From NCBI GenBank assembly GCA_030867685.1, contig JAQOWU010000008.1:2666001-2730000 (forward strand): a stretch of 64,000 nt of DNA. The letters run 5' to 3'. This DNA comes from Wickerhamiella versatilis (lineage: Eukaryota). The translations under genes were made by a program, and so were the position numbers. The notes below the pieces were generated by a model. That model was not told the origin of the DNA, did no database searches, and saw nothing but the letters and a program-made list of their open reading frames with translations. Positions 7,514 to 36,389 of this stretch are shown here, in pieces; position 1 is the stretch's first letter, and the number at the start of each line of letters is the position of its first letter.

Positions 7514-7587
7514 TGCCTCGGACCGGATTCGAACCGGTGATCTCAGCATTACTAGTGCTGCGCCTTAGCCAACTTGGCCACCAAGGC
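7514..7587 (-). tRNA. tRNA-Thr(AGU), copy 1
   Basis: GCCTTGGTGGCCAAGTTGGCTAAGGCGCAGCACTAGTAATGCTGAGATCACCGGTTCGAATCCGGTCCGAGGCA folds as a cloverleaf with anticodon AGT and GTTCGAATC B-box. A T-run lies downstream. Confidence 0.96.
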
Positions 7588-7678
7588 AAAGAACTGCAAG
7601 AGTCCGGGAATATGAAATTATATCAGCTTAAACAAAGCATGAATCTGTATGGCAAAAAATTGAAAAAGTAAGAGGAAA

Positions 7679-7752
7679 TGCCTCGGACCGGATTCGAACC
7701 GGTGATCTCAGCATTACTAGTGCTGCGCCTTAGCCAACTTGGCCACCAAGGC
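7679..7752 (-). tRNA. tRNA-Thr(AGU), copy 2 (identical)
   Basis: Identical 74-nt sequence, with its own T5/T6 terminator at 7654-7667. Confidence 0.96.
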
Positions 7753-17414: not shown

Positions 17415-17867
17415 ATGTCTACAACAGCGCGCAAGCGGCTCATGCGCGATTTTCGCCGTATGAGACAAGATAGCCCGGGTGGTGTTAGTGCTTCGCCCAC
17501 ACCGGAAGATATAATGCGATGGAACGCAGTTATAATTGGCCCTGATGGGACGCCTTTTGAGGATGGCACGTTCAAACTCGTTCTCCAGTTTGATGAAAGC
17601 TATCCCACGAAGCCTCCCAGTGTCAAGTTTATTTCTGAGATGTTTCATCCCAACGTGTATGCATCAGGAGAGCTGTGTTTGGACATTCTTCAAAATCGTT
17701 GGAGTCCCACGTATGATGTATCCACGATTCTCATGAGCATACAGAGCTTATTGAATGATCCTAATACCGCATCTCCCGCTAACGTTGAGGCATCCAATAT
17801 GTTTAGGGACCATCGCAACCAGTATAGCAAACGGGTTCGGGAAACCGTCGAGAAAAGTTGGATGTGA
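17415..17867 (+). CDS. RAD6: Ubiquitin-conjugating enzyme E2 Rad6/Ubc2 (no acidic tail)
   Basis: [13 protein letters not shown] and [26 protein letters not shown]. Confidence 0.97.
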
Positions 17868-18110: not shown

Positions 18111-20414
18111 TTAATCTACATCAACGAGTAGGCATCCGCGAACCTCTGTCAACAGAATTTCACTAGCGCCTTGGACTTCTGCGAAATGTTTGGACGCAGA
18201 CGCGGCCGATCCAAGTGCTCGTTCACATTCCTCGCGTTGTCTTGTTTGGGTCTCCAACTGTGACTGAAATGCCGCCCTCACATCCTGGGCAGGAAACTTC
18301 AGGACTTTGCGGGACTCAGACGCAATACGATCAGCGTTGTGTTGCACGTAGCCCATTTCGTCGATTTCGAAGGCAATTTTTCGGGAGAGGGCCCGAGGTA
18401 TCGTTCTGGGGAGCTCATGTACTATCCAGAGCCCTAGGCCTGCCACACCAACAATGCTAATAGGTAACAGGAGTTTACGAACATCGACCCAGCCAGCGTC
18501 GAATGCTGCCTTGACCACCTGGGAGCCGAGTGCTAGCTGGGTGCCACCTACAACCGAGAAGGCAGTGAGGAAACCACTCAATAGTGAGGTTGATGAAGAG
18601 GAGACCAGTGCTTTCTTTGAAGCCTTCAACACCGGCAAAGGACGTTCAAGAATTGGAGTGATGTCAAATATGTCAGTCAAGCCAAACGTTGAATGTATAG
18701 ATTTACCCAAATTATCGCGTTTTCTGCTGAACATGGCAGATTTTTGGAAGACTCTTGCGAACGCTGGGCGGTCTCCCACATGAAGAACGCCCAATTGCTT
18801 GATAGCGTCAACAGCAGTAGCAGTAACATCTCTAGCGTTATCTTCACAGTGAGCCACCGCATCCTGGATGTGTGAAACCAGGGAATCACGTGTCGCAGCT
18901 GCGTATTTGAGGACATCGAACAAACCAGTCCAAGGTACCAAAGGCACATTTCCCGTTTCTGTAACGGCTTTTGAAAGGTGTTCACAGCTTTGGTTAAAAA
19001 GAGCATGAGTGAGACGCTCAACGTCACGATCAATTTGCTCCGAAACCTGCGCATATTCGCGAGCAGCCGAGTCGATACCAGGCTCCATGTCTGCCAATTC
19101 ACCGGAGAGCTTCTGCTCATTGTTTTTAGCTATTTCTGCATTGATACGCGATAGTGATCCAATATCTGTCAATACATTGACTAGATATGTTCGTGCCGGT
19201 GCTAGTTTAGACAGACTGCGCTTGCGTAGGACGAAATTACGCAGGGACATCTCTAGCTTGTCAAAATCAGGGCTACCAAGACCATGGGGCGGGGAAGGAC
19301 CAGAGGGAGGATGTGAAGGGCTGGGTGCCGTTACAAAATGTACAAAATCGTCCTGGTCCTTATGCGTCTCCGGTGCGAGATCAGCTACTTGATTGAGAAT
19401 CCTTTCCCGACAACGCTGCTGATTTCTTATTTTGTCGAAATTATTCACAACAATAAATACTAGGCTTTTCTCTCTCGCAGTATCACTCACAAAATCTTTT
19501 GCAGTTTGGGTGAAATGATTTTCCGCGGAGACAACGAAAATTACAAGGTCTATCTCCTCCTGGCGACCAAAAACTTCTTCTGTCTGTAAATTGGAAACAT
19601 TAAGCCCCGGTGCATCAATAAGGCAGATATCCACAACTCCGTTGGCAAGCAGGCTGGTGTCGAGAGGACGGGGGTCCACCAAGTAAACTTTCAACAATGC
19701 ATATTTGTCCGACTCATGGACAAGGTTATCAAGCTCTTGAAGTGGAGCAGCCTTGAATGTCTTAGGGTTTTCACGGTCGTATTTTTGGCCTAGTTCAACT
19801 GCGTGTACCTCTTCGATGCCAGAGTTATTTGCCGTCGCATCCAGTACTTCACAGAAAACTTCTGTACATGGCTGTTGATCAATAGGAAGGATATCACGAC
19901 GAAGCAAAGCGTTGCAAAGTGAAGACTTTCCGGAATTAAGATCACCAGTTATCAACACCCGGGAAGCAGTATCCTCCAATCGTTCTCTCAATTTTTCTGC
20001 ACGTTGAATTACATGCAATAACTTAGATTCAAGTAACCCTTGAACACTGCGAGCGTATGCGGAATCAGAAAGCGACCGGGTATCTAAAGTCAGTACCCGA
20101 AGGGACATATCCTGTGGAACTTCTATCACCTCTCCTATCTGCTGAAAATGAAGAAAGTTACGAAGAACTTCAACAGTACGCTGAATCCATTCGCCTAGAG
20201 CTCGCTGGTTTTGTACATATCGCCTCTGACGCTCATGCGCGTCAAGTTGATCTCGTGAAGTTCGTGACAACGATCGCATTTGTCGAGGGGGGTGTGGGCC
20301 ATCAATCCCATCAGTGATCATAGATAAGACACCATCCACAGCGACTGCGTCTGGCTTAAGATGTCGTTTAGAGTCAGACTGATCTTCTGTCGACCTCTCA
20401 TCTGAAGGGGTCAT
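18111..20414 (-). CDS. FZO1: Mitofusin GTPase
   Basis: RVLITGDLNSGKS, LPIDQQPCT, IDAPGLN, RQEEIDLVIFVV, LRNFVL.KRS.SKL.PA; C-terminal TM region and coiled coil. Confidence 0.93.
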   Translation of the reverse strand: MTPSDERSTEDQSDSKRHLKPDAVAVDGVLSMITDGIDGPHPPRQMRSLSRTSRDQLDAHERQRRYVQNQRALGEWIQRTVEVLRNFLHFQQIGEVIEVPQDMSLRVLTLDTRSLSDSAYARSVQGLLESKLLHVIQRAEKLRERLEDTASRVLITGDLNSGKSSLCNALLRRDILPIDQQPCTEVFCEVLDATANNSGIEEVHAVELGQKYDRENPKTFKAAPLQELDNLVHESDKYALLKVYLVDPRPLDTSLLANGVVDICLIDAPGLNVSNLQTEEVFGRQEEIDLVIFVVSAENHFTQTAKDFVSDTAREKSLVFIVVNNFDKIRNQQRCRERILNQVADLAPETHKDQDDFVHFVTAPSPSHPPSGPSPPHGLGSPDFDKLEMSLRNFVLRKRSLSKLAPARTYLVNVLTDIGSLSRINAEIAKNNEQKLSGELADMEPGIDSAAREYAQVSEQIDRDVERLTHALFNQSCEHLSKAVTETGNVPLVPWTGLFDVLKYAAATRDSLVSHIQDAVAHCEDNARDVTATAVDAIKQLGVLHVGDRPAFARVFQKSAMFSRKRDNLGKSIHSTFGLTDIFDITPILERPLPVLKASKKALVSSSSTSLLSGFLTAFSVVGGTQLALGSQVVKAAFDAGWVDVRKLLLPISIVGVAGLGLWIVHELPRTIPRALSRKIAFEIDEMGYVQHNADRIASESRKVLKFPAQDVRAAFQSQLETQTRQREECERALGSAASASKHFAEVQGASEILLTEVRGCLLVDVD

Positions 20415-20431
20415 TGGCTTACGTTGGCTGG

Positions 20432-21340
20432 ATGAATGGTGTCTTTGCCGTAGCTAAACCGGGAGGACCTACCTCCCAGGAGGTAGTAGCTCACTTGAAG
20501 AAAATATTTACCTCCTCTCCTTTTTATGAACCCCCCAAGCAGTCGGGTCCTAAAGGCCAAAAAGGAAAGCGTGGGCGTGGGAGGAAAGACTGGATTAAAA
20601 TCGGACATGGCGGCACCTTAGATCCTTTGGCTGATGGTGTTTTAGTATTAGGCGTTGGTACTGGAACTAAACGCCTCCAGGGCTATTTGAGTGGATGCTC
20701 AAAAGTATACAAGGCCATAGCTCTCTTCGGCTGTAGTACCACTACATATGACCAGGAAGGTGCAGTGTTGGCCTGGGGACCTACAGAGAAACTCGACGAT
20801 AATTCGGTGCAGAAGGCTCTTGAGGCATTTAAAGGAGAAATCAGCCAGTTGCCGCCTGTTTTCAGTGCCCTTAAAATGGATGGTAAACCTCTCTATGAAT
20901 ACGCGCGTGAGGGCAAGCTTCTTCCGCGCCCAATTGAACCTCGCATTTGCAACATTGACTTTTTGAAAGCCGGAAAGCTTAATTGGGATCATAAATATAT
21001 GTTCCCTGAAAATATTGCGTCCGCGGGCGATCGCGAATTTGCCAGCAAAGTTTCTGGCGAAGATTATCTCCCAGAAACCACTCGGCCAACAGCTGGACCC
21101 ATATTGGAACTTGAATTTAGTGTGTCCTCAGGTACATATATCCGCAGCCTGGTTCACGACCTTGGTAAAGCATTGGGAACCCAAGCACATCTGGTGAGCC
21201 TCACTCGTATGAGCCAGGGACCGTGGTCACTAGGCAAGAACACTCTTTCTTTTGAACTATTTGATAAACCGTATGAAGAATGGTGGAAAAGTCTCAAGCC
21301 GGTCCTTGATGACGGGCCTGATAGAGCTTTGGAAAATTAG
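20432..21340 (+). CDS. PUS4: tRNA pseudouridine-55 synthase (TruB family)
   Basis: MNGVFAVAKP start, KIGHGGTLDPLADGVL, PPVFSALKMDGKPLYEYAR and SSGTYIRSLVHDLG. Confidence 0.95.
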   Translation: MNGVFAVAKPGGPTSQEVVAHLKKIFTSSPFYEPPKQSGPKGQKGKRGRGRKDWIKIGHGGTLDPLADGVLVLGVGTGTKRLQGYLSGCSKVYKAIALFGCSTTTYDQEGAVLAWGPTEKLDDNSVQKALEAFKGEISQLPPVFSALKMDGKPLYEYAREGKLLPRPIEPRICNIDFLKAGKLNWDHKYMFPENIASAGDREFASKVSGEDYLPETTRPTAGPILELEFSVSSGTYIRSLVHDLGKALGTQAHLVSLTRMSQGPWSLGKNTLSFELFDKPYEEWWKSLKPVLDDGPDRALEN

Positions 21341-21461
21341 TGATTTATGAATATGGAAGAGATCCATCTACCGACCCTACCAATTTTGTATATATAGATC
21401 TAACAACTGTTTATAGCTTGTGATGCTAGCTAGCCAGTAAATGTCTCTGCAGGCTAGATCA

Positions 21462-22886
21462 CTACAATATAAATATAAATACAATGCACAAAAGCGTTAA
21501 TTTCAAGGAGGGATGTGCAAAGACCCCACTATTATCGTCATATACTGCCCCAGGATAACTGCAAGTAACATCCCCGTCATCTCCCATGACACCGTAGGAG
21601 CTATTTATGAGGTCTTGAGTTGGACAAGTGAAGCCTAGTGATAATGGGCAAGTTCGCACCAGCCCGTAACACAAGCTTCGACAAGGAAGTATCTCTTTAT
21701 ATCGACCAGGCTTAATCAATCGATTAATCTCGGGGTTTCGAGATTTTCCAACCTCACGGGGTGCCAAATATGATGCATTATTTTCCCAGTCAGCACATCG
21801 GGGTATTGTGATAGCACATAGCCATTGACGATAGCTATAGTCACAGTCTATACAAGTGGAAAACATCGAGTAACGGTCATCTTGAGGTACATCACAAGAA
21901 ATCTGCTGTAGGGATTTGCTGAAGTTTGAATACCGCTCTTTTGCCATATTATCGTACAGATTTGAGAGTTCTGGTACTGAGAACGTCGAAGCGTTACCTG
22001 GGACGGCAAACGCCATCTGGTCACAAAAAGTCATGTTATACAAAACTTGGCAACTCTCGCTCGTTTTCGATGAGAAATCCACATGTCGAAAGCTGGCACC
22101 ACCGATCGCACCATTAAAAGGACTTTTTAGTCCCAGGTATGCCTCGTAGCGTGTACTGCGATTAAGGCCTTTCAAAAAGAATTGCCCACGGGTGGTTTGA
22201 TTGGAAGCTCCTCTATTTGTATCACTCAAATCAGCATTTGCTTGGTTTAGCAAAGAATTCTGCTGAAGTGCACAATAGCTTCGATTGAGGTGACGTACCG
22301 GATTGTTTCCTTTATCAAACACGAACAGGGAAAGAAGTGTTGAATTCATTTCATCTTTTTCATACTCCTTAATTCCCGCGTACGTTGTATTTTCTATGGA
22401 TTCTTGTAAGTCATCATACGTAGAAGACACAAAAAGGGCATTGCGGAAGTCCGAATCTACAAGGTAAAGATTTGGTGTTTTAAGGTGCCAGCTTGACGAA
22501 TAAGCCATACCAACTTGATAACTCCAGATTGTTCCGTTTTTAGGGGCGTCTATCCTTATTGCTCCATCGTCCTCTCCATAGGCCACCTCAGTCAACCCAC
22601 GTTCTGTTGTCTCATTGAAACGGCGAGTAGACAACCTAAGGGGTAAGGCTTCAGCTGGCTCCCGATGACATTCACTTAAGGACAAATGTTGCTGTATTCC
22701 AAATAAATCAAACTTTGGCATATAGTAATGCGTTTCTCCAGCTTTTATTTGGGCAGCGATCCCATCTACAGGCAGAGCGGTAGTTTCAGGATCATCACGG
22801 CGTACTATTCCCGTAGGTGCTAGGGGGTCAGTAACGTTCGCAGCTTCATTCAAGCCCAAATAGAGTAGTAGCCATCTCCATCTCAT
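21462..22886 (-). CDS. MID1: Stretch-activated Ca2+ channel subunit Mid1
   Basis: Signal peptide, LVDSDF..ALF, Cys-rich C-terminus (CDQMAFAVP, C.DC..SYRQWLC...IPRC, YKEILPC) and a hydrophobic end. Confidence 0.9.
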   Translation of the reverse strand: MRWRWLLLYLGLNEAANVTDPLAPTGIVRRDDPETTALPVDGIAAQIKAGETHYYMPKFDLFGIQQHLSLSECHREPAEALPLRLSTRRFNETTERGLTEVAYGEDDGAIRIDAPKNGTIWSYQVGMAYSSSWHLKTPNLYLVDSDFRNALFVSSTYDDLQESIENTTYAGIKEYEKDEMNSTLLSLFVFDKGNNPVRHLNRSYCALQQNSLLNQANADLSDTNRGASNQTTRGQFFLKGLNRSTRYEAYLGLKSPFNGAIGGASFRHVDFSSKTSESCQVLYNMTFCDQMAFAVPGNASTFSVPELSNLYDNMAKERYSNFSKSLQQISCDVPQDDRYSMFSTCIDCDYSYRQWLCAITIPRCADWENNASYLAPREVGKSRNPEINRLIKPGRYKEILPCRSLCYGLVRTCPLSLGFTCPTQDLINSSYGVMGDDGDVTCSYPGAVYDDNSGVFAHPSLKLTLLCIVFIFIL

Positions 22887-23041
22887 CTGACCACTATATG
22901 TAAGCGGCTATGTTAGAGATCTATTTTGGGTTCTGGCCAAGCGCTAATCGTCAAGATACTGAGACTAAAGCCTATTTTTTCCACTATCTAGGGTATTCAG
23001 TTTCACAATTTCCCAGAAGTTCAGATCGAATTGAACAGATC

Positions 23042-23066
23042 ATGAGATGAGATGAGATGAGATGAG
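23042..23066. repeat. Pentanucleotide microsatellite (ATGAG)5
   Basis: atgagatgagatgagatgagatgag in the MID1/RFC3 intergenic region. Confidence 0.85.
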
Positions 23067-23211
23067 AATGCATTCACATTTCTAAAGCATAGACTAGAAA
23101 TATTAATTTATATTATTTAAATAGAAAAAAAAACCAATTTAGAATTCCCTAAAATAATCGCTTTTGTTATGTCTCCTTTTATCCTTCTATTAAGTCGCGG
23201 TACTCGCCACG

Positions 23212-23217
23212 ACGCGT
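23212..23217. promoter_or_regulatory. MCB element ACGCGT upstream of RFC3
   Basis: Exact MluI box 5 bp before the ATG of a DNA replication gene. Confidence 0.5.
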
Positions 23218-23222
23218 AATCA

Positions 23223-24191
23223 ATGGACTCTCTTCCATGGGTTGAGAAGTATCGACCGACACGACTAGGCGACGTAAGTGGTCAAGATGGGGTTGTTGCA
23301 ACTGTGCGACAATTTGTTAATCTTCGACAACTTCCACACTTGCTGTTCTATGGACCGCCAGGTACGGGAAAAACCTCGACCATCGTGGCAATCGCACGAG
23401 AGATTTTTGGTGATAGCTATAAAAATATGGTGCTGGAGCTGAATGCAAGTGATGATAGAGGCATCGATGTTGTACGGGACCAAATCAAGATGTTTTCTTC
23501 GACACGTCAGATCTTCGCCAAGCAAGGCTCGTTCAAGCTGGTTATTCTCGATGAAGCCGACTCCATGACGAATGTGGCTCAGAATGCACTTCGGCGTATT
23601 ATTGAAAAGTATTCAGCGCACACAAGATTTTGTATACTGGCAAATTATGTGCATAAACTGAATCCTGCCCTGGTGTCGCGATGTACTCGGTTTCGATTCT
23701 CGCCAATATCTCAAGATGCGATAAAGTCCAGAATTCAGCATGTCATTGAAGGTGAGCACGTTAATATTTCTGATGATGGATTGAAAGCTTTAATGGAGTT
23801 GAGCCAGGGTGATATGCGCAAGGCACTTAATGTGCTCCAAGCATGCTATTTCCGCAAACAGGGCGAAGATAGCTCAATTAAGGCTGCGGATATATATGAT
23901 TGTGTTGGTAGTCCAGACCCCAATGACATCGAAACAATCGGCAAATCACTTCTTCGGGATGATTGGCCGTTATGCATGGATACAATATTCAGTCTCAAAC
24001 TGCGAAAGGGATATGCTTTGGCTGATATCTTGTCTGGTGTAGGACAGCTTTTCATGGATGTCGACATATCCCCCTCCACGCGTAAAAACGCACTAAGCGG
24101 ACTCGCGGAAATTGAATATCGCCTGGCTAATGGAGGCTCAGAAAAACTACAGACTTCAGCAATGATTGGTGCAGTGAAACAATCTTTGTAA
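23223..24191 (+). CDS. RFC3: Replication factor C small subunit
   Basis: LPWVEKYRP, PHLLFYGPPGTGKTST, ELNASDDRGIDVVR, ILDEAD and SRCTRFRF. Confidence 0.95.
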   Translation: MDSLPWVEKYRPTRLGDVSGQDGVVATVRQFVNLRQLPHLLFYGPPGTGKTSTIVAIAREIFGDSYKNMVLELNASDDRGIDVVRDQIKMFSSTRQIFAKQGSFKLVILDEADSMTNVAQNALRRIIEKYSAHTRFCILANYVHKLNPALVSRCTRFRFSPISQDAIKSRIQHVIEGEHVNISDDGLKALMELSQGDMRKALNVLQACYFRKQGEDSSIKAADIYDCVGSPDPNDIETIGKSLLRDDWPLCMDTIFSLKLRKGYALADILSGVGQLFMDVDISPSTRKNALSGLAEIEYRLANGGSEKLQTSAMIGAVKQSL

Positions 24192-24339
24192 AGAGAATAA
24201 TACATAAAAGATCACCATCCACCCCCTCATCTCCTCTAACGCAAAAAATCCCAATTAAATTGTCGGCTGTTTAGAATAAGAGATGCTGAATATGTATTTT
24301 AGAATTCTACATATTACGATACGGCAGCTAAATAAATAT

Positions 24340-25143
24340 CTACGTTGGTAAAGTACAGCGCCACGAGTATTTAAGCCCCTCCTGGGCGGCCCACTCGACC
24401 CCGATTCGGTATAGCAGGCAGGCAGCTTCTTGGGGATCTGAATTTACATGCAATGGAAGTACCGCCTTATCACTGCTTAACTTGGGTGGGTCACTGAGTT
24501 GCGCTTTTGTCCAATGGCCAAGGTGATATTTTTCTTGTAGAATGTGCAAAGGAAGCAATGTGATTCCTCTGCGAAAATTAGATACAGCGGACCACAAATG
24601 GTCAACACTTGTACGATTATGCGACGCAACACGAATCTCAACTATTGCACTCACTTGATATATTAGTCCAATCAGGTCAACCTCCAGGGAGCCAAGATAA
24701 GATGCTGTTTTCCTGAGATATGGTAAAAGGGTATTCCATGAGCGTGCATGTAGTGGTTGAGACATATAGTGCTCACCCTTTTCCTCCCATAGGAAAGCTA
24801 ATATAAAGCACGCAATGGCATCGAGCGACTGAAGGGCTGCGAGCCGATGCAAATTATCCCGTGCTGCCTTGTCGGCAGCATGTTTTGTCTCCCGTGCACG
24901 TTCATTCCAAAATTTCACTCGACGATGTGCCATCTTGTAGCTAGCCGCATCTCCTTGTGGAAGTTTGAGAGTGACAAGAAATCGACGGCTTTCGGCGGGT
25001 TCACAGTAGTCGGGTGGAAGCGATGGACTTAAGGGTTCACTCGGAAGATCTAACTCACTAGCAGGATCCCAATCGCTCGGCAGGGTAGGACTGAGAATAG
25101 GCGGCAGCTCCAGTTCGACCAGTGAACCAGCATGCTGCCGCAT
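24340..25143 (-). CDS. Ebp1/AF4-like C-terminal domain protein (putative elongation factor partner)
   Basis: N-terminal LPPILSPTLP/LSPSLP motifs and a helical domain (AR.TKH.AD; SLDAIACFILAF; SWNTLLPY) resembling fission yeast Ebp1 and the AFF C-terminal homology domain. Confidence 0.55.
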   Translation of the reverse strand: MRQHAGSLVELELPPILSPTLPSDWDPASELDLPSEPLSPSLPPDYCEPAESRRFLVTLKLPQGDAASYKMAHRRVKFWNERARETKHAADKAARDNLHRLAALQSLDAIACFILAFLWEEKGEHYMSQPLHARSWNTLLPYLRKTASYLGSLEVDLIGLIYQVSAIVEIRVASHNRTSVDHLWSAVSNFRRGITLLPLHILQEKYHLGHWTKAQLSDPPKLSSDKAVLPLHVNSDPQEAACLLYRIGVEWAAQEGLKYSWRCTLPT

Positions 25144-25171
25144 TATGACGTCAGCTCAACTTGCAAGAAAT

Positions 25172-25591
25172 ATGATCAAGTACGTTAAAGGCGACCTATT
25201 CAATGCTAATTCAGGAGTACTTGCCCATGCATGCAACTGTTATGGCGTCTGGGGAGGTGGGATTGCCGTGGCGTTTCGCAAAAAGTTCCCGGCAGCCTAT
25301 GAGGCTTACCATCAGCATTGCGCTCTAAGATCCCCCCAACAGCTGTTGGGTACGTGCTATTTGATTCCCGATGGAAAGTTCAAGATCGCCTGTCTCTTCA
25401 CCTCGGACAATTCAAGCGTAGATGAAACAGTTGCATACACAAAATCTGCTATGGAGGACCTGATACGACAGGCACCAGATGAGCCCATCTCAATGCCAAA
25501 GATCAACGCTGGAATTTTTGCGGTACCCTGGGAGAAAACCGAGTCTGCGCTGGTGCAATTAGATTATCCTATTAATGTTTATGTTCTATAA
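25172..25591 (+). CDS. POA1: Macro-domain ADP-ribose-1''-phosphate phosphatase
   Basis: [33 protein letters not shown] and [13 protein letters not shown]. Alternative in-frame ATG at 25145. Confidence 0.9.
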
Positions 25592-26771
25592 AATCAACCG
25601 ACCCAACGTATGAGAATCCTTGAAAGAGATGATTTTCAGCAGGATTCCGGGTGGGCGGGCTCAATATCATTTTGGTAAAATCATCGCTGAAGTTTTCCGC
25701 CAATTCCGGATCTGTGACCAAGGGCTTGATGGGCGGATCGAGGGTCTCAGATTTCGTTTCAATCGCCTTCCAATTCAGCTTACGGAAAAAACGATGCTTC
25801 TGAATATACTGTATATCACGAAACCCCAGCCGTTTGTGAGCTTCTTTGCGCAGTAGTTTCCGCAATATATCTTTTGCATCCTCACTCAGGTAATACGGCA
25901 AGTTCACCTTCTGACGCGTGATCTTTTCCATGATCCGCTTATTATTATTTCCAGTGAAAGGCGGACTTCCCGTAAGCATGTCAAATAATACAGCGCCTAG
26001 AGCCCACCAGTCCACGGCATAGTCATATTCCTTGCCAAGAAGAACTTCGGGGGCCATATATTCAGGCGTACCAAGTAGAGATTTACAGCTACTGCCATCC
26101 TCTGCAACCTTGGATAGCCCAAAGTCTGTCAGTAATAAGTTTCCATCGGCGTCGAGCAAGCAATTCTCGGGCTTCAGGTCTCGATACACTATGCCGGACT
26201 TATGAAGGTGCGTTAGCGCACTCACTATTTGTGCGGTGTAAAATGCCGCAATATCCTCATCGAACATACGCTCGGAGGCAAGGTGGGTAAATAATTCGCC
26301 CCCTGGAGCATACTGTAATATTAGGTAGAGCTTTTCAGGATCCTGGACCGCGTAGTGCAACCGGACGATGTACGGATGCCGAATGGCCTCCAGGATCTGA
26401 CGCTCAGACATAGTTTGCTCCAAGCGCCTTGATTCCATCACCAGGGTCGCTTTTTTCAGCTGCTTCTGGGCATATAGCCGCTTGCTCGTTTTATCCCGAA
26501 CAAGCAGCACCTTACCATATGCACCAGTGCCAAGCACTTTCAATTGCTCAAAATCTTCGGGAACACGCCCGCGCTTTTTATGTTTTACAAGGTCCTCAAC
26601 ACCCAGCACTAAACTGTGGCCAGCTCGATGCCCTCGCGGAATAGAGGTTCCTGGACTGGGTACATCGTTATCGGGCATCGGAGGCACCGCATCTAACAAT
26701 GCAGGTGCAATCTCAGCAGAACCCTGCGACTGGGTCCGCGTCGGGACGCCCTCCAGGTCGAAAATATCCAT
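25572..26771 (-). CDS. YPK3: AGC-family S6 kinase-like Ser/Thr kinase (Ypk3/Psk1)
   Basis: [43 protein letters not shown] and hydrophobic motif FQGFSY. First ATG at 26771. Confidence 0.88.
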
Positions 26772-27258
26772 TCGGCCTGACGTCCACACCCACACCAGCA
26801 CGTGTAAGCAGAGAGAATATGAGATTGGAAGAATTGCCTCTAAGTGCAAGATACCTCTCAGCAGGGAGCTATATGATTTCCTATAAATAAATTTCTTTTT
26901 ATAAAATAAACCTGCACGCTTAAAGTCTTCTTGAAACTTCCGAATTGGATGGTGAGGTGATATGAGTAAGAGTCAGGAGAGCAAAAGGCACTTTATTAAG
27001 GAAAACACTAGCGTGTGCCGCCCGTCCCACCAAAACCAAACCAGAGAAACTTAATTTGCGATAGTTTTTATTCCAATTTTTGAAAATGAAACATATAATT
27101 TTAAATTTTATAGTTTTTTTCCCGATTTCTTTTTGTTCGAGCACATCTCATCACCAACCGTCACATTCATCCATCACGGGAATCGACATAACCGGGTACT
27201 TTCTGGGGACAATTAACTGGGAAGGTAATTTTACTAGTAAGATAAATAATAAGTTAAA

Positions 27259-27573
27259 CTATTTGGTGCCGAAACCGTAGAGGGTTCGGCCATTGCGTTT
27301 GAGGGCATAAACGACGTCGAGGACCGTAACTGTCTTACGCTTCGCGTACTCAGTGTAGGTGTACGCATCTCTGATGACCTTGTGAAGGAATCCACGCAGA
27401 ACAATACGGGTGTGCTCGTAGATGAGGGCTGAAATACGCTTGACACCTCCACGACGAGCCAGACGGCGAATAGCGGGCTTGGTTACACCTTGGATGTTGT
27501 CACGCAAGACCTTGCGGTGGCGCTTGGCGCCTCCCTTTCCGAGTCCTTTACCGCCTTTTCCACGTCCAGACAT
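27259..27573 (-). CDS. Histone H4, divergent (variant-like)
   Basis: Canonical N-tail [20 protein letters not shown], but many histone-fold substitutions and a C-terminal GFGTK. No neighbouring H3. Confidence 0.95.
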
Positions 27574-27659
27574 ACTTGTTTCCAGTTAAAACGAAAGAAT
27601 GTGGGTGGTGTGGCGGTCTTTATACCTGCCGCGAGGCTTCCTTCATCACAGGTCAGTGG

Positions 27660-28577
27660 TTAGGGACCAGTAGTATAGGGTAAGGAAATACCACCCATAC
27701 CCGGTCGACTCTCGTTAATCACGTGGATAGGACCGTTAGGTGTGGTGAATACAGCGGCTACCATTGAACTGGCCCCCTTTAAGACCCAATCCACTTGGAT
27801 ACCTGTGTCATATGACTCTGCTCGAATAACACCAAAGTAGGGATCTCTTTGCATTTGTATGTGTGATTGCATTTTGCCCGCGAGTTCCGCCAAATCCTCA
27901 CTAACAGCTCCCTCACGCGCTAGCTGAAATGCAGCTATGTCTTCCCCAAACCCGGAGCAAAGGCAGGCAGTCTTTTCTGTGGCAAAAAGTGCTGCTCCAT
28001 ATTGAGCTGCAGGCCCGATACGACCAGGGTCCTTTAGCAGAGCACCGCCGCTGCTGCTAGCAACTGCGACTTCGCCTTCCTGCATCACAAAAACACCAAT
28101 TGTGTCCCCTCTATATCTTTCGAATCTACGACGGGTTGACTCTGTTTTCAGATCCCGGGAAGTCAAGCCCGCCTGTGCGGCATAAGCCTGAGCGCCGTTG
28201 CCCGCCAAAAAAGTTGGCGTTGCTGTCCTCGAGGGTTGCCCCTGTCTTTGCAGCATCAATTCACAAACTTTGATTGGATTCGCCACGTGAGGGACCGCAC
28301 CTACGGCGGCATGGCCTAGCCGGCTGTTTTTTATTGAGGCCAAACAGGCGTCACACTCGACCTCTCCAGTGAGATTGAGCTCGCTTCCAAGACCGCAATT
28401 TGTGAGCGGACTATCCTCCAAGGCCACCGCCAGACGAACGGCAATTTCCTCTGCCGATAAGCCTGGTTCAAGATCAGATGTAATCCCCAAGACATCAACA
28501 GCTAGGCGACTGAGTCTATTGACAGCATGTGCCGGTAGAATTTCACCAGCACCTAGAAGCACTCCGACTACTGTCAC
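27660..28577 (-). CDS. Taspase-1/type-2 asparaginase family Ntn hydrolase; putative GTG start
   Basis: VLLGAG, LEDSPLTNCGLGSELNLTGEVECDA, GAVP.VANPI, cleavage site GD|TIG, SSGG..LK.PGRIGPAA and SGFGED. No in-frame ATG precedes these motifs. Confidence 0.8.
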   Translation of the reverse strand: MTVVGVLLGAGEILPAHAVNRLSRLAVDVLGITSDLEPGLSAEEIAVRLAVALEDSPLTNCGLGSELNLTGEVECDACLASIKNSRLGHAAVGAVPHVANPIKVCELMLQRQGQPSRTATPTFLAGNGAQAYAAQAGLTSRDLKTESTRRRFERYRGDTIGVFVMQEGEVAVASSSGGALLKDPGRIGPAAQYGAALFATEKTACLCSGFGEDIAAFQLAREGAVSEDLAELAGKMQSHIQMQRDPYFGVIRAESYDTGIQVDWVLKGASSMVAAVFTTPNGPIHVINESRPGMGGISLPYTTGP

Positions 28578-28942
28578 TTTGAACTTTTCGATCAAACCCT
28601 AGCCCAAAGCATATCACCAGCTTTTAGTCAAGCTGCCTATCTTGCAAGCCATATTCGTGCACATGCATCCGCACACGCATACTAAAAAAATGGATTGACC
28701 ATTGGTTTGGTGGTAATTTCCAGAACTAGCTACCGGTTTCTCGCATATTGGAGCTGGGGCCAAGCTATTTACTTAGTCATTGGAAACTTCGTTTTTCTGG
28801 GGTGTGCATGGTGCTGCGCATCGTTCTAGAAGAAATAGAAAAAAATATATCCTTTCCATACAAATCGCACCAGGCTCACTGGCTATTGAACTTTGTGATA
28901 ACACTTAGATGAAGCTTACTCAGTCAGGTTAACTTCAGCAAA

Positions 28943-30136
28943 ATGGATGCCCGTGCTCGGATGGAAGCATGGGTTGAACGTTGCTGCCGGTCACCTGGAG
29001 TTAACGAGCAAACGCTTACTATGGTGAGATATAAGGTCGCCATGGCGTTGCAATTCCCTCATATACTCAATAATACGAACTGGGAGAAGGAAGCAGTACC
29101 ACGACCCCAATCCTTCGATACCACTAATAATTCTAAGAACGCTAGAGGTGGACAGGCTGCAGCAAATTACAAGAAAAAACCTCAAAAAAATTATAGTAGC
29201 GAAACCGGCGATATTGGGCTATCCCATCAATCGCTAGAAAAACCCACTCAAAACCAACTGGAAAAGCGCCGGGCACGGTTTAGCCAGCCAGCACCCAAGC
29301 GTCCTACCACAGTTAAGCGCACTACTGATGGACATATACTGGGATACTGCCAGGATCTCGAAAAAGAATATCTCCGTCTCACCTCTGCCCCGGATCCTGC
29401 ACGGGTGCGGCCTCCAGATGTGCTAGAAAAATCTCTCGACTACGTTCTTGGAGTGTTCAAAAAGAATCATAAGTACTCGTACATCATAGACCAGCTTGCG
29501 TCAATTCGTCAAGACCTCAAGGTCCAAGGGGTGCAAACGCCGTTCAGTGTGCGGGTCTACGAGACAAATGCACGGATTTCCATTGAACATGATGACATCA
29601 ATGAATTCCACAAGTGCGAACGAGAACTCAATGAGACTCTATACCCTACAATTGGCTGGGAAAAGTGCCCGAATGCCGGCGAGTTTAGAGCTTACACTAT
29701 TTACTACCTGTTATACGTACAGCATTGGGACGAACTTAACACGGAGGTGTATAAGGTACGCCGTGAACAGCATCTGTTGAAATCAAAAGACATCCAACGT
29801 GCCCTCAGTTTGGTCGACTCTAAGGTTGGCGGGGATATCATGAATCTCCTTCAGCTAGTGTGCACTGCACCGCGGCATTCGCAGATGCTGCTTAAGAACT
29901 TCTTATTGCGCGAGAGAATTAGCCTGCTCAATGATATAGTTTCGTGTCTGCGAGGACCAAGTGGTGTGTCCGTATCCACAATAGCTAAAGCTATGAACTT
30001 GAAAGATGCAAAAAAGTTTTTGGACACACTAGGGGTCAAATATAGTCATGGGGAGCTTACAAGCAAGGCACTCCCCCATATTCAACGAAAATTGCGCGAG
30101 TTTTCGGGCCCTGTAGATTTAAAAGGGCAAATATAG
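28943..30136 (+). CDS. THP3: SAC3/GANP/THP3 family PCI protein
   Basis: RRARF, GYCQDLEKEYLRLTSAPDPARVRP, IRQDLKVQ, VYETNARI and C-terminal VDLKGQI. Confidence 0.88.
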   Translation: MDARARMEAWVERCCRSPGVNEQTLTMVRYKVAMALQFPHILNNTNWEKEAVPRPQSFDTTNNSKNARGGQAAANYKKKPQKNYSSETGDIGLSHQSLEKPTQNQLEKRRARFSQPAPKRPTTVKRTTDGHILGYCQDLEKEYLRLTSAPDPARVRPPDVLEKSLDYVLGVFKKNHKYSYIIDQLASIRQDLKVQGVQTPFSVRVYETNARISIEHDDINEFHKCERELNETLYPTIGWEKCPNAGEFRAYTIYYLLYVQHWDELNTEVYKVRREQHLLKSKDIQRALSLVDSKVGGDIMNLLQLVCTAPRHSQMLLKNFLLRERISLLNDIVSCLRGPSGVSVSTIAKAMNLKDAKKFLDTLGVKYSHGELTSKALPHIQRKLREFSGPVDLKGQI

Positions 30137-30153
30137 ATATTAGATATGAATGC

Positions 30154-30837
30154 CTACGACTGATCAACAAGCGCTATTATTGAGAAGTTCCCATCCTTCT
30201 CGCGATGCATAAACTCCTTGATAACTTCTATGGCCTGTGCATTGAGCACGTCACCATCAGAACCAACAGAACCCCTGACGATAGGACCTTTCCGTCTTCC
30301 ATCAAGCTCTACAAGTTCGGATGAATTCCTGGCTTTTGTCAGGCACACATAGTGGAAGTCTATATCGGCGTTTGCCGGTGGGGCCTCCGTAGTACCACCG
30401 GATGCCACCGACGCGTGCTGAGAGGCCAATTTTTCGCTACCCTCAATATATCTGACCCTATCCTCTTTAGACAGGTCGGGTAAATCGCGATCAAACTCTG
30501 CCAATAGGCCGTGGCCTTTGGCCTCACTGGGGATACCATTCAATGCCGCATGGAGCAACGCCATCGTACCACATGCATTGTCAATTGTCTGTTTTAGCCA
30601 GATAGAACTTTGAGCCTCGTCTGCACCGTGGTGCTCGTCACTGCTTGCCCGATATGCCTCATAAGCAGGTGTTATGGGGAATACAAGGAGTAGGGCGCGA
30701 ACAGGTCGAGGCACGAAACTAAGCATCTCATCGTCTAATGACCAGATGTCAATGAATTCCTCCCCTGTGACACCAAGTTTAACCAAGAGTTCGTTAAATA
30801 CATCAGGGTTACACTCCAGAGGCACGAAGGCTGGCAT
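30154..30837 (-). CDS. YUH1: Ubiquitin C-terminal hydrolase (UCH-L3 type)
   Basis: FVPLECNP, KQTIDNACGT (catalytic Cys), FHYV (His) and ELDGR (Asp). Confidence 0.95.
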   Translation of the reverse strand: MPAFVPLECNPDVFNELLVKLGVTGEEFIDIWSLDDEMLSFVPRPVRALLLVFPITPAYEAYRASSDEHHGADEAQSSIWLKQTIDNACGTMALLHAALNGIPSEAKGHGLLAEFDRDLPDLSKEDRVRYIEGSEKLASQHASVASGGTTEAPPANADIDFHYVCLTKARNSSELVELDGRRKGPIVRGSVGSDGDVLNAQAIEVIKEFMHREKDGNFSIIALVDQS

Positions 30838-30950
30838 AACGTAATATGAATGAAATGTACTGGACTGCTAATTTGTTTACATGAATGATGATATATAGGG
30901 AAGGGGGTGTAAAATACAATAATGACTGTTATGAGGTAAGTGAAAATAAA

Positions 30951-32246
30951 TTATAAGGATTGGACGTACTTTCCGAGACGTTTGTACTCAGTGAGTAGTT
31001 GACGGACATCACTGATGGTGAGCTGTTCTGGGTCACTATGGAGAAACCGGGTATTGACTGCAGGTGGAGGGGTTTGGCTTAATTGCTTCGACAGCATACC
31101 TTTATAATTTTGAATAGTAGCACCTAGTGAGCCCAATGAGAAAGTGCTGCTGGGGTTGTAGCGGGAGCTTCGCGAACTCTGCGAGCTGGACCTGCTTCGC
31201 GACCGTAGGCGATTGGCAGGGTGCGGAGCAGCTTCGATGGGGGCAAATACAGCCGGATCCACATCTCCAGGGAATTCGTCAACCACCAGGCTTTCAACAA
31301 TAGTTATTGAAGCCTCCAGGTTTGTGAGGCAATATTCAGCCTGAGACACTATCGCGCTCTTACGTCGGAACCTGTGGATATATTGGAATTGTGACCAAAT
31401 ATTGTTCATTCCACTGGTGATCATGCAATGAAGAAAGCAGGGCAGGATGTGATCGCCGGCCGATGCTCCTGCCCCGCCTAACGTCTTCTCCAGGGCCGAA
31501 GCGATATGCTGATGTGCCTGTACGATCTGGTTTAATTTATCCTGCGGAGATCGTTCAAGTCCAACTGCCTGCAGTGCATTCGTAGCTGGCTGCAAAGCCT
31601 CACACAGCGCAGGATTGTCGAGAAGCAGCAGCTGCTTAGCGGCGAAGTCAGGATGGGTCCTCAATACGTCGAATCTCCCCTGGATCTTGCGGCAACGCTC
31701 GCGATCTGATATATCAGTTGAGGGTTCAAATAATTTAGGGTACAATGTTACAGTAAGACGTTGCTCAACGGCATCGAGAGCATGCTCGATGCGGCGGTCC
31801 TGGTGACGGCGCTGCCGCTTCTTTGTTGCCAGCTCTGAGCTGCTGAGCATTGGCATGCCAAGATTATCAGGATGATTTGATGCTGGTTCAAGTTTAGTGG
31901 CAAGGCCGCGATAGAACTCCTGGAATAGCCAGGCAATTTCATCCCCGCTCAAGGCCTTGGCGTACTTGGGCTCCTGCAAACTCTTCACAAAATTTTCTGC
32001 AGCAGCATCAGCGGCCATCATGATGTCTCGCGCACTTTCGTGCTCTCCGTGGTCGACGTTCTCCTCTAAAATAGTGTGATTCACGGGCGATTTTGACGGG
32101 CTTCTGTCAGCTCCGGTCTCTCTATCTCGCCATGCCTCTACTGTTTCGTAGCTCACATTTACGCTAGTCTCAGGTGTAAAAAAGAATGGCTTTCGATGAG
32201 GAGCTCCAGCACCTGCCTGCGGTGGACGGAGACTCGCAAGGTCCAT
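30951..32246 (-). CDS. VPS9-domain Rab5 GEF (Muk1-like)
   Basis: SPQDKL...H, GDHILP, YIHRFR and AEYCLTNLEA; C-terminal RFL...PEQLTISDV..LL.EYKRL. ATG at 32246. Confidence 0.82.
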   Translation of the reverse strand: MDLASLRPPQAGAGAPHRKPFFFTPETSVNVSYETVEAWRDRETGADRSPSKSPVNHTILEENVDHGEHESARDIMMAADAAAENFVKSLQEPKYAKALSGDEIAWLFQEFYRGLATKLEPASNHPDNLGMPMLSSSELATKKRQRRHQDRRIEHALDAVEQRLTVTLYPKLFEPSTDISDRERCRKIQGRFDVLRTHPDFAAKQLLLLDNPALCEALQPATNALQAVGLERSPQDKLNQIVQAHQHIASALEKTLGGAGASAGDHILPCFLHCMITSGMNNIWSQFQYIHRFRRKSAIVSQAEYCLTNLEASITIVESLVVDEFPGDVDPAVFAPIEAAPHPANRLRSRSRSSSQSSRSSRYNPSSTFSLGSLGATIQNYKGMLSKQLSQTPPPAVNTRFLHSDPEQLTISDVRQLLTEYKRLGKYVQSL

Positions 32247-32671
32247 AGCCAATGTGATGAAAGGAGACGAGGTTTTGGGCAGCTATGTAATCTAAGCGGC
32301 CTAATTGCCGGTGCAGGTACACTTCTAAATAAAACTCCCAACTAAGTCGGGTTTAAATGATGCGTTTAGAGCGAGAGTGTGTTAGAATGCACAAAAAAAT
32401 AAGGATTTGTCTTGCGTGTGATGAACTTTGAGTGGTTTCATAATATCAGTACCAAACCACCGGAAACTACTAATTCGGCGGTCACAAGACATATGTGGGG
32501 AATTGAAAGAAAAAAGGTGGTATGACAAGCTAGTCTATTTACAAAATGAACATATTTAATTTTTTCCTTTGCAAGCTAAACGAGGTTTCTCGAAAATTCG
32601 CACCAGTTAACACCGGATGATTACATACGCACTATATAGCTCTGGGGACGAAGGCCGTTTCCTTGCCCTGG

Positions 32672-33073
32672 ATGAAACGTAGAGCAGATGCCTTTCCTGA
32701 GCAAGGCCAGCCGTCTAAAAAACTTGCGAGAATTCTATCAGAGCTTTCACTGAACGATCAGCTCTCTAGGAAGGTCACGGATGTGCACGAGATTGATGAT
32801 GACAAGGAGGACACCCTGATCAATAATGTCGAGGTAGATAGGAGGTTCCTGGAGATTCCACCGGAGATAGCCGCGTCCTTCCAGCCGCAAGGCCAGGAAC
32901 CAAACGCTCTAATACTTTATAAACCCATGTCGATGCCTAATCCGTATACAAGCGATGAGCCAATTGTCGAGTTCCCGGACGAACCCAGCGACAGCAACAA
33001 TTATCATGCCACTGGAACTCAGAATTATAAACAAATAACGGATGGGGCTGATGTCATGGAGATCGATGACTGA
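32672..33073 (+). CDS. Small hypothetical protein
   Basis: MKRRA...KKLARILSELSL, ALILYKP and C-terminal MEIDD are motifs typical of small conserved fungal proteins. Coding-like composition, with TATA-like tatata upstream. Confidence 0.6.
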   Translation: MKRRADAFPEQGQPSKKLARILSELSLNDQLSRKVTDVHEIDDDKEDTLINNVEVDRRFLEIPPEIAASFQPQGQEPNALILYKPMSMPNPYTSDEPIVEFPDEPSDSNNYHATGTQNYKQITDGADVMEIDD

Positions 33074-33206
33074 CCCGGATATTAATGATGTTATGACTTA
33101 AGATTTACGACTTCGACAGCACTAAGTATTGCATTGTGTCTATAAGATAAATTTAGATGCTCATCATGCTAGATAAAAAAGTAGCAGGACATGAGGGGAC
33201 AGAATA

Positions 33207-34910
33207 CTATCGCGCATAGAGCGCTAGTTTAGTTCCATTTCGTAACAGATGCTCAAATGCACTCGAAGATTCTACCGGCGATCCTGAGAGATCAGAACTA
33301 GTGTACAGCTCGGGTTGCGTACCTAGGCGATCGGATATCCGAGCGTAAACTTCGGGCCATGGCGTTGGGTGCGGGATCCGCATTGCAATAACGTCATGTG
33401 AATTAGTGTGTATTTTGAGCTTTAGGGTGGGTACTCCACTGAGGTTACTCTTGGACGGGAAGCTCCGCAGAGTATGGGCCTGGATTTGTGAATTTGATGG
33501 GGGTGCCGACACAACCGATGTGTTCCCAAGCTCTGGGCTACCGGTAACTGCTGCCGGGGTCATGGGAGAAGGGGAGGGCATTCCGGAAATTGATGCGGTG
33601 TTTATTGAGCCCTCAGAGCCAATACGCCGTGCAACGTCATCATCTGGCGGCTGGGGTAGCTCTGTTGTTGGTTCCTGGCTATCAATATCTCCCTGGCGGG
33701 GGTGAAACAGCTGCAAAACCATTGCGCTGCGAGAGATTTTAGGTGGCATACGAATGAGGGCTTTGACATAGTCGTCGAGATTAGCGCACCGTTGAGAAGA
33801 TATCTTGTGATTGACCAGGGTGAGAGGACCCGGCATGAAGGGGAGCGTTCGTGTCTGGCCCGTGCGACCGGCCTCATCAGGAAACACGTCCAGAAGCTTG
33901 ATTTGAAAGTCGTAAAATTCTTGATAAAACCTACAGAGGTTGCGGTAATGACCATTAGACATCTCAGCTTTTAGTAGATACCAATAGCGACCGCCTGTAA
34001 TGGCAAACTTATCGACCCTGGCCTTCACCACATGCACGGTCCCTGGGGCGGCGATTGGCGCTTTCGAGGATGATTGGGCATCTGCAGAATTGTTCCAGGG
34101 ACCACTGGCATTGGAACTCTGGAATGAGGAGCTCGTTGTCGACTCGAACTTACCCAGAGGTATGCTGGACGCCTTATATTCCGCAGCCCGACGCTTCCAC
34201 TCGTCAACATTGGGCACGCCAGCGCGCCGTATAGCTGCTTGCACATCCTCGGGAGGTATTGGCATGTCATTTCCCACCTCACGGAGTTCAACATAGCTGA
34301 CGGGAATGAGTCCCGGCCCACCAAGCCTTCCAATGGGTTTAGCGACAAACCATTCTTCATTCGACTGGGCAATCACGACGATGGATTCTCCTGCTCGCGC
34401 ATCAAGCTCATCATTGCGCTCTGCAGTGAAATCATAGAGCACAAACCCGTAAAGCATCATGGACGCCCGGGACCGGGATGTCCCCTTGGAGCTGGTTGTG
34501 GATTGACTCACTCTCTGCGAATGCCCCTTGACGGGAGTGGTAGCTTGGTGGGACCCATAGGTTCGTGCAGATGGGGTGGCTGAATTATGGTTAGTTTGCG
34601 CATGCATCGCGTGAGTTAAACTCACAGTATTGGTAGGCTCCTGGCGATGGATAACCGTGAAGTATGACCTCGGGACAAGGCCTGACGTATTGGCAAGCGG
34701 GTCGCACGCCACAAACCAGTCCCTGTCGCTATCATCCAGCACGTAAAGGAAATGTCCTTTCTCAAACGACATCTCATCACTATGCTGGGCGGTGTAAGGG
34801 TGGTCAGCTCGGATAATCTGCTTGGGGGCGGCAACTGCTAGTTGACTCTTTGCTTCGCGTGGCGATTCATGCCGCCACTCGCCACGAAGACGCCGCAGAC
34901 CTTTAATCAT
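33207..34910 (-). CDS. BEM1: Polarity scaffold Bem1/Scd2
   Basis: Two SH3 domains, EWFVAKPIGRLGGPGLIP, PX domain (LCRFYQEFYDFQI.LL..FP.EAG...LPFMPGP) and C-terminal PB1. Confidence 0.95.
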   Translation of the reverse strand: MIKGLRRLRGEWRHESPREAKSQLAVAAPKQIIRADHPYTAQHSDEMSFEKGHFLYVLDDSDRDWFVACDPLANTSGLVPRSYFTVIHRQEPTNTVSLTHAMHAQTNHNSATPSARTYGSHQATTPVKGHSQRVSQSTTSSKGTSRSRASMMLYGFVLYDFTAERNDELDARAGESIVVIAQSNEEWFVAKPIGRLGGPGLIPVSYVELREVGNDMPIPPEDVQAAIRRAGVPNVDEWKRRAAEYKASSIPLGKFESTTSSSFQSSNASGPWNNSADAQSSSKAPIAAPGTVHVVKARVDKFAITGGRYWYLLKAEMSNGHYRNLCRFYQEFYDFQIKLLDVFPDEAGRTGQTRTLPFMPGPLTLVNHKISSQRCANLDDYVKALIRMPPKISRSAMVLQLFHPRQGDIDSQEPTTELPQPPDDDVARRIGSEGSINTASISGMPSPSPMTPAAVTGSPELGNTSVVSAPPSNSQIQAHTLRSFPSKSNLSGVPTLKLKIHTNSHDVIAMRIPHPTPWPEVYARISDRLGTQPELYTSSDLSGSPVESSSAFEHLLRNGTKLALYAR

Positions 34911-35438
34911 TGTCGTATATCTTTTTCCCCTTTCTATTAATGACTAAGATGCGCGGCTTGACGTATGTCGAGCGATGCGCATATCGATTACTTTAGTATA
35001 CTCAGCCCATTTAAAGATCAATAGCGGTCAATTATGCGTAAAGTTTCAGTTTAATGGTTTTATCATGTTCTTGACACAAAGTTATCAGCGTGAAATCACC
35101 ATGCGTCCACGGTGTCCACGCTAATAGTTACGAAACGTATTAACAGGGTTAGGAACATCTAATTTCAGGTGGTGCAGGTGGCTGACTATTTAAAGTACTT
35201 CCCAAATATAATTACTGAATTTGCTGAACCGTGAATGGTAAGGTAACGTGATAACATCTATATGGTTTTGATGGTCACAACTGACAGCCCCGATTCTGTT
35301 TAAAGAAACTGAGGAGGGGGTTATTTTGCTATATTTATCTTCGTCATTATAATATGTAAGCGCCACGACCCTCGTGGATTGTGCAGGCCACGCTGGTGTT
35401 GACACTAAATCACTTGCTGGCTTACTAAGCCTCACGAT

Positions 35439-36389
35439 ATGCTCGAGAAGGAACTTCAAGTCGCTCTTAACGCGGTGAGGGCGGCCTCTCATATCACCAG
35501 GAAGGTGCAGCACACGCAGATAAGCTCATTTGGCAAGGAAGACTCATCCCCGGTGACGTTTGCCGACTACGCTGCCCAGGGAGTTATTATTTCAGCAGTC
35601 AAGCGGGCGTTCCCTAAGGATCCTTTTGTGGGAGAGGAGGATGCTGATAAGCTACGGCGGCACCCCAAGCTAGCCGATGCGGTGTTCGAGCTCTCCAAGG
35701 ATTACGGTGTCGGTACGAAGGAGGACCTTCTTGATGCGATTGACCAGGGCGACTGTCCTGGAGGACCGGTTGGGCGCCAGTGGGCACTCGACCCTGTCGA
35801 TGGAACCAAGGGGTTTTTACGTGGTGGACAGTATGCCATATGCCTGGCGCTGATAGTGGACAGCAAGGTACAGCTGGGCGTTATTGGTTGCCCAAATCTC
35901 GATGAATGCGGTGGCCTCTTTTGGGCCGTGAAAGGCGCTGGATCCTGGTACCAGCCCCTTAACAACCCCGAAGCGGTCCCCCAAAATATTTCGTTCAAGC
36001 ATCTGAAGTCAACCAAAGACGCAATTTTCTGTGAGAGTGTCGAGGGTGGCCACTCGAATCTGGGAGCTCAGGCTCAGATTGCTGAGGACCTAGGCATAAC
36101 GAAGAACCCGCTTCGAATGGATAGCCAGGCTAAGTACTGTGTGCTTGCCAAGGGTGACGCTGATATCTATCTGCGGTTACCTGTTTCCTTGACGTACGAA
36201 GAGAAAATATGGGATCACGCCTCGGGATCTCTTCTCGTGACCGAGGCAGGAGGAATTGTTACCGACATGTATGGCCGGGATCTCGACTTCGGTCAGGGTC
36301 GGACGTTGAAAAACAACAAGGGTGTCATTGCATCCAATCGCAAGACGCACCCGGTAATTTTAGCGAAGCTCGCATCTATGGGTAAGTGA
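35439..36389 (+). CDS. MET22: 3'(2'),5'-bisphosphate nucleotidase
   Basis: K.D.SPVT.ADY, GEED, WALDPVDGTKGFLRG.QYA, RMDSQAKY and EKIWDHA.G. Confidence 0.95.
   Translation: MLEKELQVALNAVRAASHITRKVQHTQISSFGKEDSSPVTFADYAAQGVIISAVKRAFPKDPFVGEEDADKLRRHPKLADAVFELSKDYGVGTKEDLLDAIDQGDCPGGPVGRQWALDPVDGTKGFLRGGQYAICLALIVDSKVQLGVIGCPNLDECGGLFWAVKGAGSWYQPLNNPEAVPQNISFKHLKSTKDAIFCESVEGGHSNLGAQAQIAEDLGITKNPLRMDSQAKYCVLAKGDADIYLRLPVSLTYEEKIWDHASGSLLVTEAGGIVTDMYGRDLDFGQGRTLKNNKGVIASNRKTHPVILAKLASMGK

Follow-up and report, generated by a model that had tools for sequence, protein, structure and literature searches.

Results

A solitary histone H4 gene between a kinase gene and a taspase-like gene

The analysed stretch of Wickerhamiella versatilis DNA (64 kb, called the window below) is compact, intron-poor yeast DNA with 47% GC. 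Its housekeeping genes include those for a Rab GTPase, Leo1, SRP19, Rad6, an RFC subunit, a macro-domain protein, UCH, SAC3, myosin and Hsp70, among others. The histone H4 coding sequence locates at 27259..27573 on the minus strand. It was assigned from its open reading frame (ORF) and translation and from a phmmer search against solved H4 chains, and consists of 104 intron-free codons followed by TAG. The frame is intact and uninterrupted from ATG to TAG, as stated in a preliminary description of this DNA, and the product has 104 amino acids.

The neighbours named in that description, an S6K/Ypk3-type kinase on one side and a taspase-like gene on the other, were both recovered in tandem orientation with H4. 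The AGC kinase gene of the S6K/Ypk3 type (25572..26771, minus strand) lies directly downstream. It carries the Pfam domains Pkinase and Pkinase_C, and its best solved relatives are p70 S6K1 (E=1e-92). The H4 3' flank up to the kinase start (26772..27258, minus strand) is AT-rich directly past the stop codon and is the presumed terminator region. The taspase-like gene (27660..28583, minus strand) lies directly upstream in the same orientation and belongs to the Asparaginase_2 family (Pfam PF01112), with threonine aspartase 1 as its best solved relative (E=2e-26). A catalytic-type motif, GDTIG, is present in this gene. Its N-terminal third (28257-28583) is conserved and its frame is open, with no in-frame ATG after the preceding stop and the first ATG at 28256. 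Judged from the sequence, the gene would be truncated, start at a non-ATG codon or have a small intron near its 5' end.

The spacer from the taspase-like stop to the H4 ATG (27574..27659, minus strand) is just 86 bp long, so further H4 control elements must sit inside the taspase-like gene. The candidate TATA box, TATAAAG, is present on the minus strand as described before, but at 27618..27624, one base off the coordinates first given; it was read from the sequence, lies 51 nt upstream of the H4 ATG and has a putative function. No cluster of Spt10-type UAS sites was found at the H4 gene, and one site with a single mismatch was detected at 27884-27899, about 310 bp upstream. Across the window there were 31 such sites versus 28.7 expected by chance, with a consensus that may not suit this clade. 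No Rfam family was found within 20000-36000.

Canonical yeast H4 genes are divergently paired with H3, and this gene is not. Its upstream neighbour is the tandem taspase-like gene, which bears out the earlier remark that a divergent H3 partner is lacking, and H3 is absent across the 64-kb window, which covers 27 kb to one side of the gene and 36 kb to the other. When the window was searched by tblastn with the H4 protein, the gene returned itself alone (next best E=3.8). Short signature motifs of H3, H2A and H2B gave no credible match in the window.

Several other features of the window were recorded. A Rad6/Ubc2-type E2 (17415-17867, plus strand; best solved relatives yeast Rad6, E about 5e-78) and a Leo1-like Paf1-complex subunit (1305-2285, plus strand) both look ordinary. 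Proteins of these two kinds work in H2B ubiquitination and on transcription-coupled chromatin. Two tRNA-Thr(AGT) genes stand in tandem on the minus strand at 7513-7588 and 7679-7752, about 90 bp apart. Four ORFs gave no Pfam family at a threshold of 1e-5 or 1e-3, at 11945-13885 (minus strand, 646 aa), 24340-25143 (minus strand, 267 aa), 37209-37946 (plus strand, 245 aa) and 42318-43811 (minus strand, 497 aa).

A canonical tail on a histone fold with rare residues

The protein carries both the tail and the fold of H4. In the alignment, residues 1-28 do not differ from those of human H4, with K5, K8, K12, K16, K20 and the basic patch all present, and the tail is canonical as first noted. Residues 1-102 match solved H4 chains by phmmer with E=9e-53, which identifies an H4-type histone fold by sequence. 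About 15 differences to the best solved chain, 4xyi_B, were counted by eye in the printed alignment. The identity to human H4 (P0089) is 86%, and that to a canonical yeast-type H4 (P0213) is likewise 86%. The Pfam CENP-T_C/H4 fold family scored 24.3 bits, under its curated cut-off of 28.1. The DNA-contacting arginines and the hydrophobic α2 face packing on H3 are kept. The window H4 gene is genuine and intact, and its sequence is strongly conserved.

Canonical fungal H4 (S. cerevisiae HHF1/HHF2 and S. pombe H4) shares with it the length class, the tail 1-28, the fold, the DNA-binding arginines and the hydrophobic α2 face, and is 85-86% identical over residues 1-102. In contrast to these proteins, the window H4 has E53H, E63H, N64K, V70Y, H75Y, S83V and Q93N, and ends with G-T-K rather than G-G. 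At the gene level it is unpaired with H3 and has no evident Spt10-type sites. The changes listed in the preliminary description were all present (E53H, I56, K59R, E63H, N64K, V70Y, H75Y, V83, Q93N, and G102T plus K103), and two more, I29V and G60, were absent from that list.

H4 is among the slowest-evolving proteins. To state how rare each residue is, residue frequencies were taken from 230-232 other H4-like sequences, a sample partly selected for likeness to the query, which makes the counts conservative. H53 was found in none of 232 and Y70 in none of 231 other H4s. H63 occurred once and K64 three times in 231 sequences, V83 in 5 of 232, N93 in 11 of 230 and Y75 in 14 of 231. I56 (28/231), R59 (39/231) and G60 (25/231), together with A48 and L84, are ordinary variation among the collected H4s. 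Of the seven rare residues, at most four recurred together in any other H4 of the sample, and 209 of the 232 sequences had none.

The codon usage of the H4 gene was compared with that of the 31 window ORFs of at least 250 aa. The ENC of H4 was 46.9, while the long ORFs averaged 57.7 and went no lower than 51.7; the H4 bias is the strongest in the window and confirms the suspected enrichment in preferred codons. GC3 was 0.577 for H4 and 0.470 for the window ORFs. C-ending codons were used for 13 of the 16 Tyr, His, Phe, Asp and Asn residues, and CGT or CGC for 13 of the 15 Arg residues. GTG, GCA, ATA, GGG, CGG, AGG, CTA and TTA were never used.

The changes in helix α2 cluster on one face

All eight α2 changes fall within 80 degrees of one helical face (resultant 0.59), and only 350 of 20,000 random subsets were equally clustered. 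The opposite face, formed by L58, F61, L62, V65, A69 and Y72, is untouched. A fold model of the protein gave one long helix over residues 43-80, with a mean pLDDT of 69.7.

Two of the changed positions have been studied in S. cerevisiae. H4 E53 is exposed on the disc surface of the nucleosome, at a distance from DNA, and has a reported contact with the CAF-1 subunit Cac1; the E53A allele is reported to cause a 63-fold hyper-recombination and an S-phase delay (PMC7328676). Cells with the H75Y allele are viable, and selections for stronger telomeric silencing yielded the allele twice. With it, silent chromatin spreads more and is more stable, and a stronger H2B/H4 contact and a weaker interaction with Asf1 were predicted (PMC2587916). 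The S. cerevisiae alleles share their positions with the window H4, and H75Y is exactly the same substitution. They are, however, single engineered or selected mutations in canonical H4, whereas the changes of the window H4 are natural, accompanied by about eight others and fixed in a lineage.

Because the tail, the DNA-contacting arginines and the H3-packing face are kept, assembly into ordinary nucleosomes is expected, and the tail would offer its KRHRK basic patch and all its usual sites of modification. The lineage-specific changes would affect the α2 face opposite H3 and the C-terminal end of α2. E53H, E63H and N64K would remove two acidic groups from the exposed disc surface and add one basic group, and V70Y and H75Y would add aromatic bulk towards the H4-H2B interface. 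In the predicted nucleosome the H3-H4 disc surface is less acidic and the contact of H4 with H2B is tighter, and the changes are presumably co-adapted with the chaperones and H2B of the lineage. We infer these structural consequences for the nucleosome.

The same H4 in a diverged sister lineage

Two H4 entries from other assemblies, P0035 and P0122, are ORFs extended upstream. Their extensions align to the 3' end of the window taspase and to the spacer (ISL..YT..CDE..IKT), which identifies the same taspase-H4 locus in a diverged lineage. About half of the flanking residues are changed there and indels are present, and the 104-aa H4 is 100% identical. A check of synteny in related species had been proposed, and on the taspase-H4 side synteny is kept in this sister lineage. 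The I-K-T codons of the extension stand at the matching place of TATAAAG and are compatible with its retention. Opposite window positions 27574-27662, the taspase stop and the spacer are altered in the sister lineage, and the ORF runs through into the H4 frame. The called proteins from these read-through ORFs, of 137 aa and 152 aa, are probably an ORF-calling artefact and not a fusion protein.

P0036 is the sole other form of this H4, with 99% identity and one conservative change, A69S. As judged by these comparisons, the H4 is under strong purifying selection with conserved synteny.

A silent or decaying dispersed H4 copy, that is, a pseudogene in the making with no functional consequence, might be suspected from the solo position, the very short upstream spacer and the changes at otherwise near-invariant positions. 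This explanation is very improbable. The gene has an unbroken frame and the most biased codon usage of the window, and its product retains the hydrophobic core and the DNA-binding residues. Over 104 codons there is not one amino-acid change in a lineage whose flank has diverged with indels, and the only other form differs by the conservative A69S. The intact frame, the top codon bias and the 100% identical protein in the diverged sister lineage agree with the earlier view that the gene is not a decaying pseudogene, and a pseudogene reading is nearly excluded by the sequences.

Distribution of the sequence and number of contigs

When about 5.8 billion clusters were searched with the whole protein, only P0035 (100%) and P0036 (99%) exceeded 88% identity among the best 120 of 8000 scored matches. 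When only the fold (residues 46-104) was used, its own two forms reached 118 and 116 bits among 181 candidates, and the rest of the 120 listed had at most 89 bits and at most 84% identity. Metagenome contigs gave no H4 of the window type: of 493 H4-encoding stretches 80 were kept, the best of which had 88% identity, and none held the variant-specific peptides. None was found in contigs of prokaryote genomes either, where all 55 loci were mis-binned eukaryotic canonical H4, and the protein atlas gave generic H4 clusters only. Since no other H4 of this type appeared in the database searches and contig scans, the sequence seems to be confined to the source yeast and its nearest kin. The 55 loci that encode canonical eukaryotic H4 (L081-L135) are filed under bacterial and archaeal MAGs and isolates; some of their contigs hold at least three H4 copies (those behind L092/L097/L086 and L094/L098/L100/L101) and look like mis-binned histone-repeat contigs.

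These searches also bear on a foreign origin of the gene by horizontal transfer from another eukaryote. The Wickerhamiella/Starmerella clade is known for many horizontally acquired genes (PMC12629084), and the H4 gene lies apart from H3. No candidate donor was found, however, as the matches listed from the roughly 5.8 billion clusters, apart from the protein's own forms, did not exceed 88% identity over the whole protein or 84% in the fold. The nearest solved relatives are ordinary fungal-type H4s and the codon usage is the preferred set of the host, and we consider a transfer extremely improbable.

The exact H4 protein was found on 23 contigs, with 26 in its 90% cluster and 6 more for the A69S form. 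In comparison, 12 single-copy window genes (115-474 aa) had 8-16 contigs per cluster with a median of 11 (13 for Rad6 and 16 for the 115-aa ORF). An excess of about two-fold is what a second locus for the same protein would give. Alternatively, a short invariant gene could survive better in fragmented mixed-strain assemblies, or more distant lineages may share the same H4.

The locus was present in at least 20 runs from 12 studies, mostly metagenomes of food and food fermentation, with several isolate runs of about 10-11 Mb of contigs; none of the runs listed was an RNA run. For Mid1, which neighbours H4, relatives were found at 98% and 70% identity; the nearest named one was that of Wickerhamiella sorbophila (49%), followed by Trichomonascus, Yarrowia and Sugiyamaella, which points to a yeast of the Wickerhamiella/Starmerella clade.

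Evolutionary rate of the H4

Relative rates were tested with human H4 as the outgroup. With P0213 as the sister, 9 changes were counted on the window H4 branch versus 2 on the other (chi-square 4.45, p=0.035). With three other sisters the counts were 8 versus 2, 6 versus 1 and 8 versus 5, none of which was significant. The rate excess suggested by these sequences is thus real but modest.

As for the background, the Wickerhamiella/Starmerella clade is one of three faster-evolving yeast lineages, with the acceleration largely on terminal branches (PMC12629084), and present-day H4s that depart from the canonical sequence are reported for some Trichomonascaceae (PMC10878826). For histone H4 in Wickerhamiella/Starmerella, no mention was found among the papers listed, and the variant peptides of the window H4, searched as printed text, gave no literature match. 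The divergence of H4 in Trichomonascaceae is already remarked in one sentence of the literature, and the specific window sequence is not in print as text.

Discussion

A probable bulk H4 of a fast-evolving lineage

The preliminary description put forward a specialised H4 variant in its headline, and as the other reading a lineage with fast-evolving histones. The second reading is favoured by the fast-evolving clade, the divergent Trichomonascaceae H4s and a contig count about twice that of the single-copy neighbours, and the variant reading is weakened. We consider it somewhat probable that the gene encodes a functional nucleosomal H4, the diverged bulk (replicative) H4 of a narrow Wickerhamiella/Starmerella lineage, possibly from more than one locus. 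The window locus would then be a dispersed H4 gene without H3, and the same protein would probably be encoded elsewhere too, plausibly at the H3-H4 cluster of the clade. We infer both the bulk use of this H4 and the existence of a second locus.

The fully canonical tail and the strong codon bias support use as bulk H4, and several observations argue against it. The gene has no H3 partner, and if a paired cluster like that of Starmerella exists in this yeast, the window gene is an extra copy. The 86-bp spacer without a Spt10-type cluster is unlike the standard control regions of budding-yeast histone genes. The databases hold no intermediates, and a burst followed by stasis is also expected of a neofunctionalised duplicate. 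The relative-rate excess is modest as well.

A true H4 variant would mean that canonical H4 is kept at the H3-H4 cluster and that the solo gene is a duplicate with a new role. Examples of such a role would be replication-independent deposition, or the marking of special chromatin by the re-charged disc surface and the tighter H2B contact. The gene stands solo between unrelated genes without H3, and its 86-bp upstream spacer has no Spt10-type sites. A single paired H3-H4 cluster is reported for Starmerella (PMC10917516), which would make the solo gene an addition. The changes are confined to one exposed helical face and consist of residues essentially unseen in other H4s, their strict conservation in the sister lineage points to function, and the lack of intermediates in the databases searched fits a burst after duplication. 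On the other side, the strongest codon bias in the window suits a bulk histone better than a minor variant, and about twice as many contigs carry the exact protein as carry its single-copy neighbours, which one variant locus per genome does not predict. The H4s of some Trichomonascaceae are themselves divergent, and the tail is fully canonical, whereas it is mainly the tails that set the fungal variant H4E apart, a variant that a survey of fungal H4 genes did not find in Saccharomycotina (PMC10878826). Weighing these points, we regard a true variant as possible but unlikely. Slightly more doubtful still is its most specific form, a highly expressed H4 replacement variant beside canonical H4, conserved in the sister lineage, with a canonical tail, a disc re-charged by E53H, E63H and N64K, and an H4-H2B interface made aromatic and tighter by V70Y and H75Y.

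Comparison with known fungal systems

Bulk H4 of a fast-evolving lineage has a parallel in Hanseniaspora (PMC10917516). Hanseniaspora is likewise an accelerated budding-yeast lineage in which the canonical core histones themselves have diverged from those of other yeasts. Spt10 control is reported as lost there, which shows that canonical histone genes can do without it, and it is not evident at the window gene either. In Hanseniaspora, however, the divergence is greater in H2A and H2B than in H3 and H4, and the genes stay clustered, whereas in the window H4 itself is changed and the copy is dispersed.

The fungal variant H4E (hH4v; PMC10878826) was considered as the identity of the window H4. 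Both are fungal H4-family proteins whose genes are unlinked to H3. H4E has longer, divergent N- and C-terminal tails with few Lys and Arg residues, and a weakly expressed gene with multiple introns. In contrast, the window H4 has a canonical tail, no intron and a strong codon bias. An H4E-type identity was rejected on the canonical tail, the uninterrupted ORF and the range of the family, which was not found in Saccharomycotina.

Significance

With His at E53 and E63 and Tyr at V70 and H75 fixed in nature, this H4 can serve as a useful natural experiment. A silencing-enhancing allele (H75Y) is joined in it to a change at E53, where CAF-1 makes contact, and the lineage has shed many genome-stability genes. 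In either reading, the protein provides a species-specific marker peptide for a yeast that is common in food fermentations. Should this yeast also have a canonical H4, the window protein would be the first variant of this histone in Saccharomycotina, with its differences in the fold and not in the tails. If it is the bulk H4, co-changes are predicted in H2B, CAF-1 and Asf1, and the protein would indicate the extent to which a nucleosome core can drift in a rapidly evolving yeast and the surfaces that change first.
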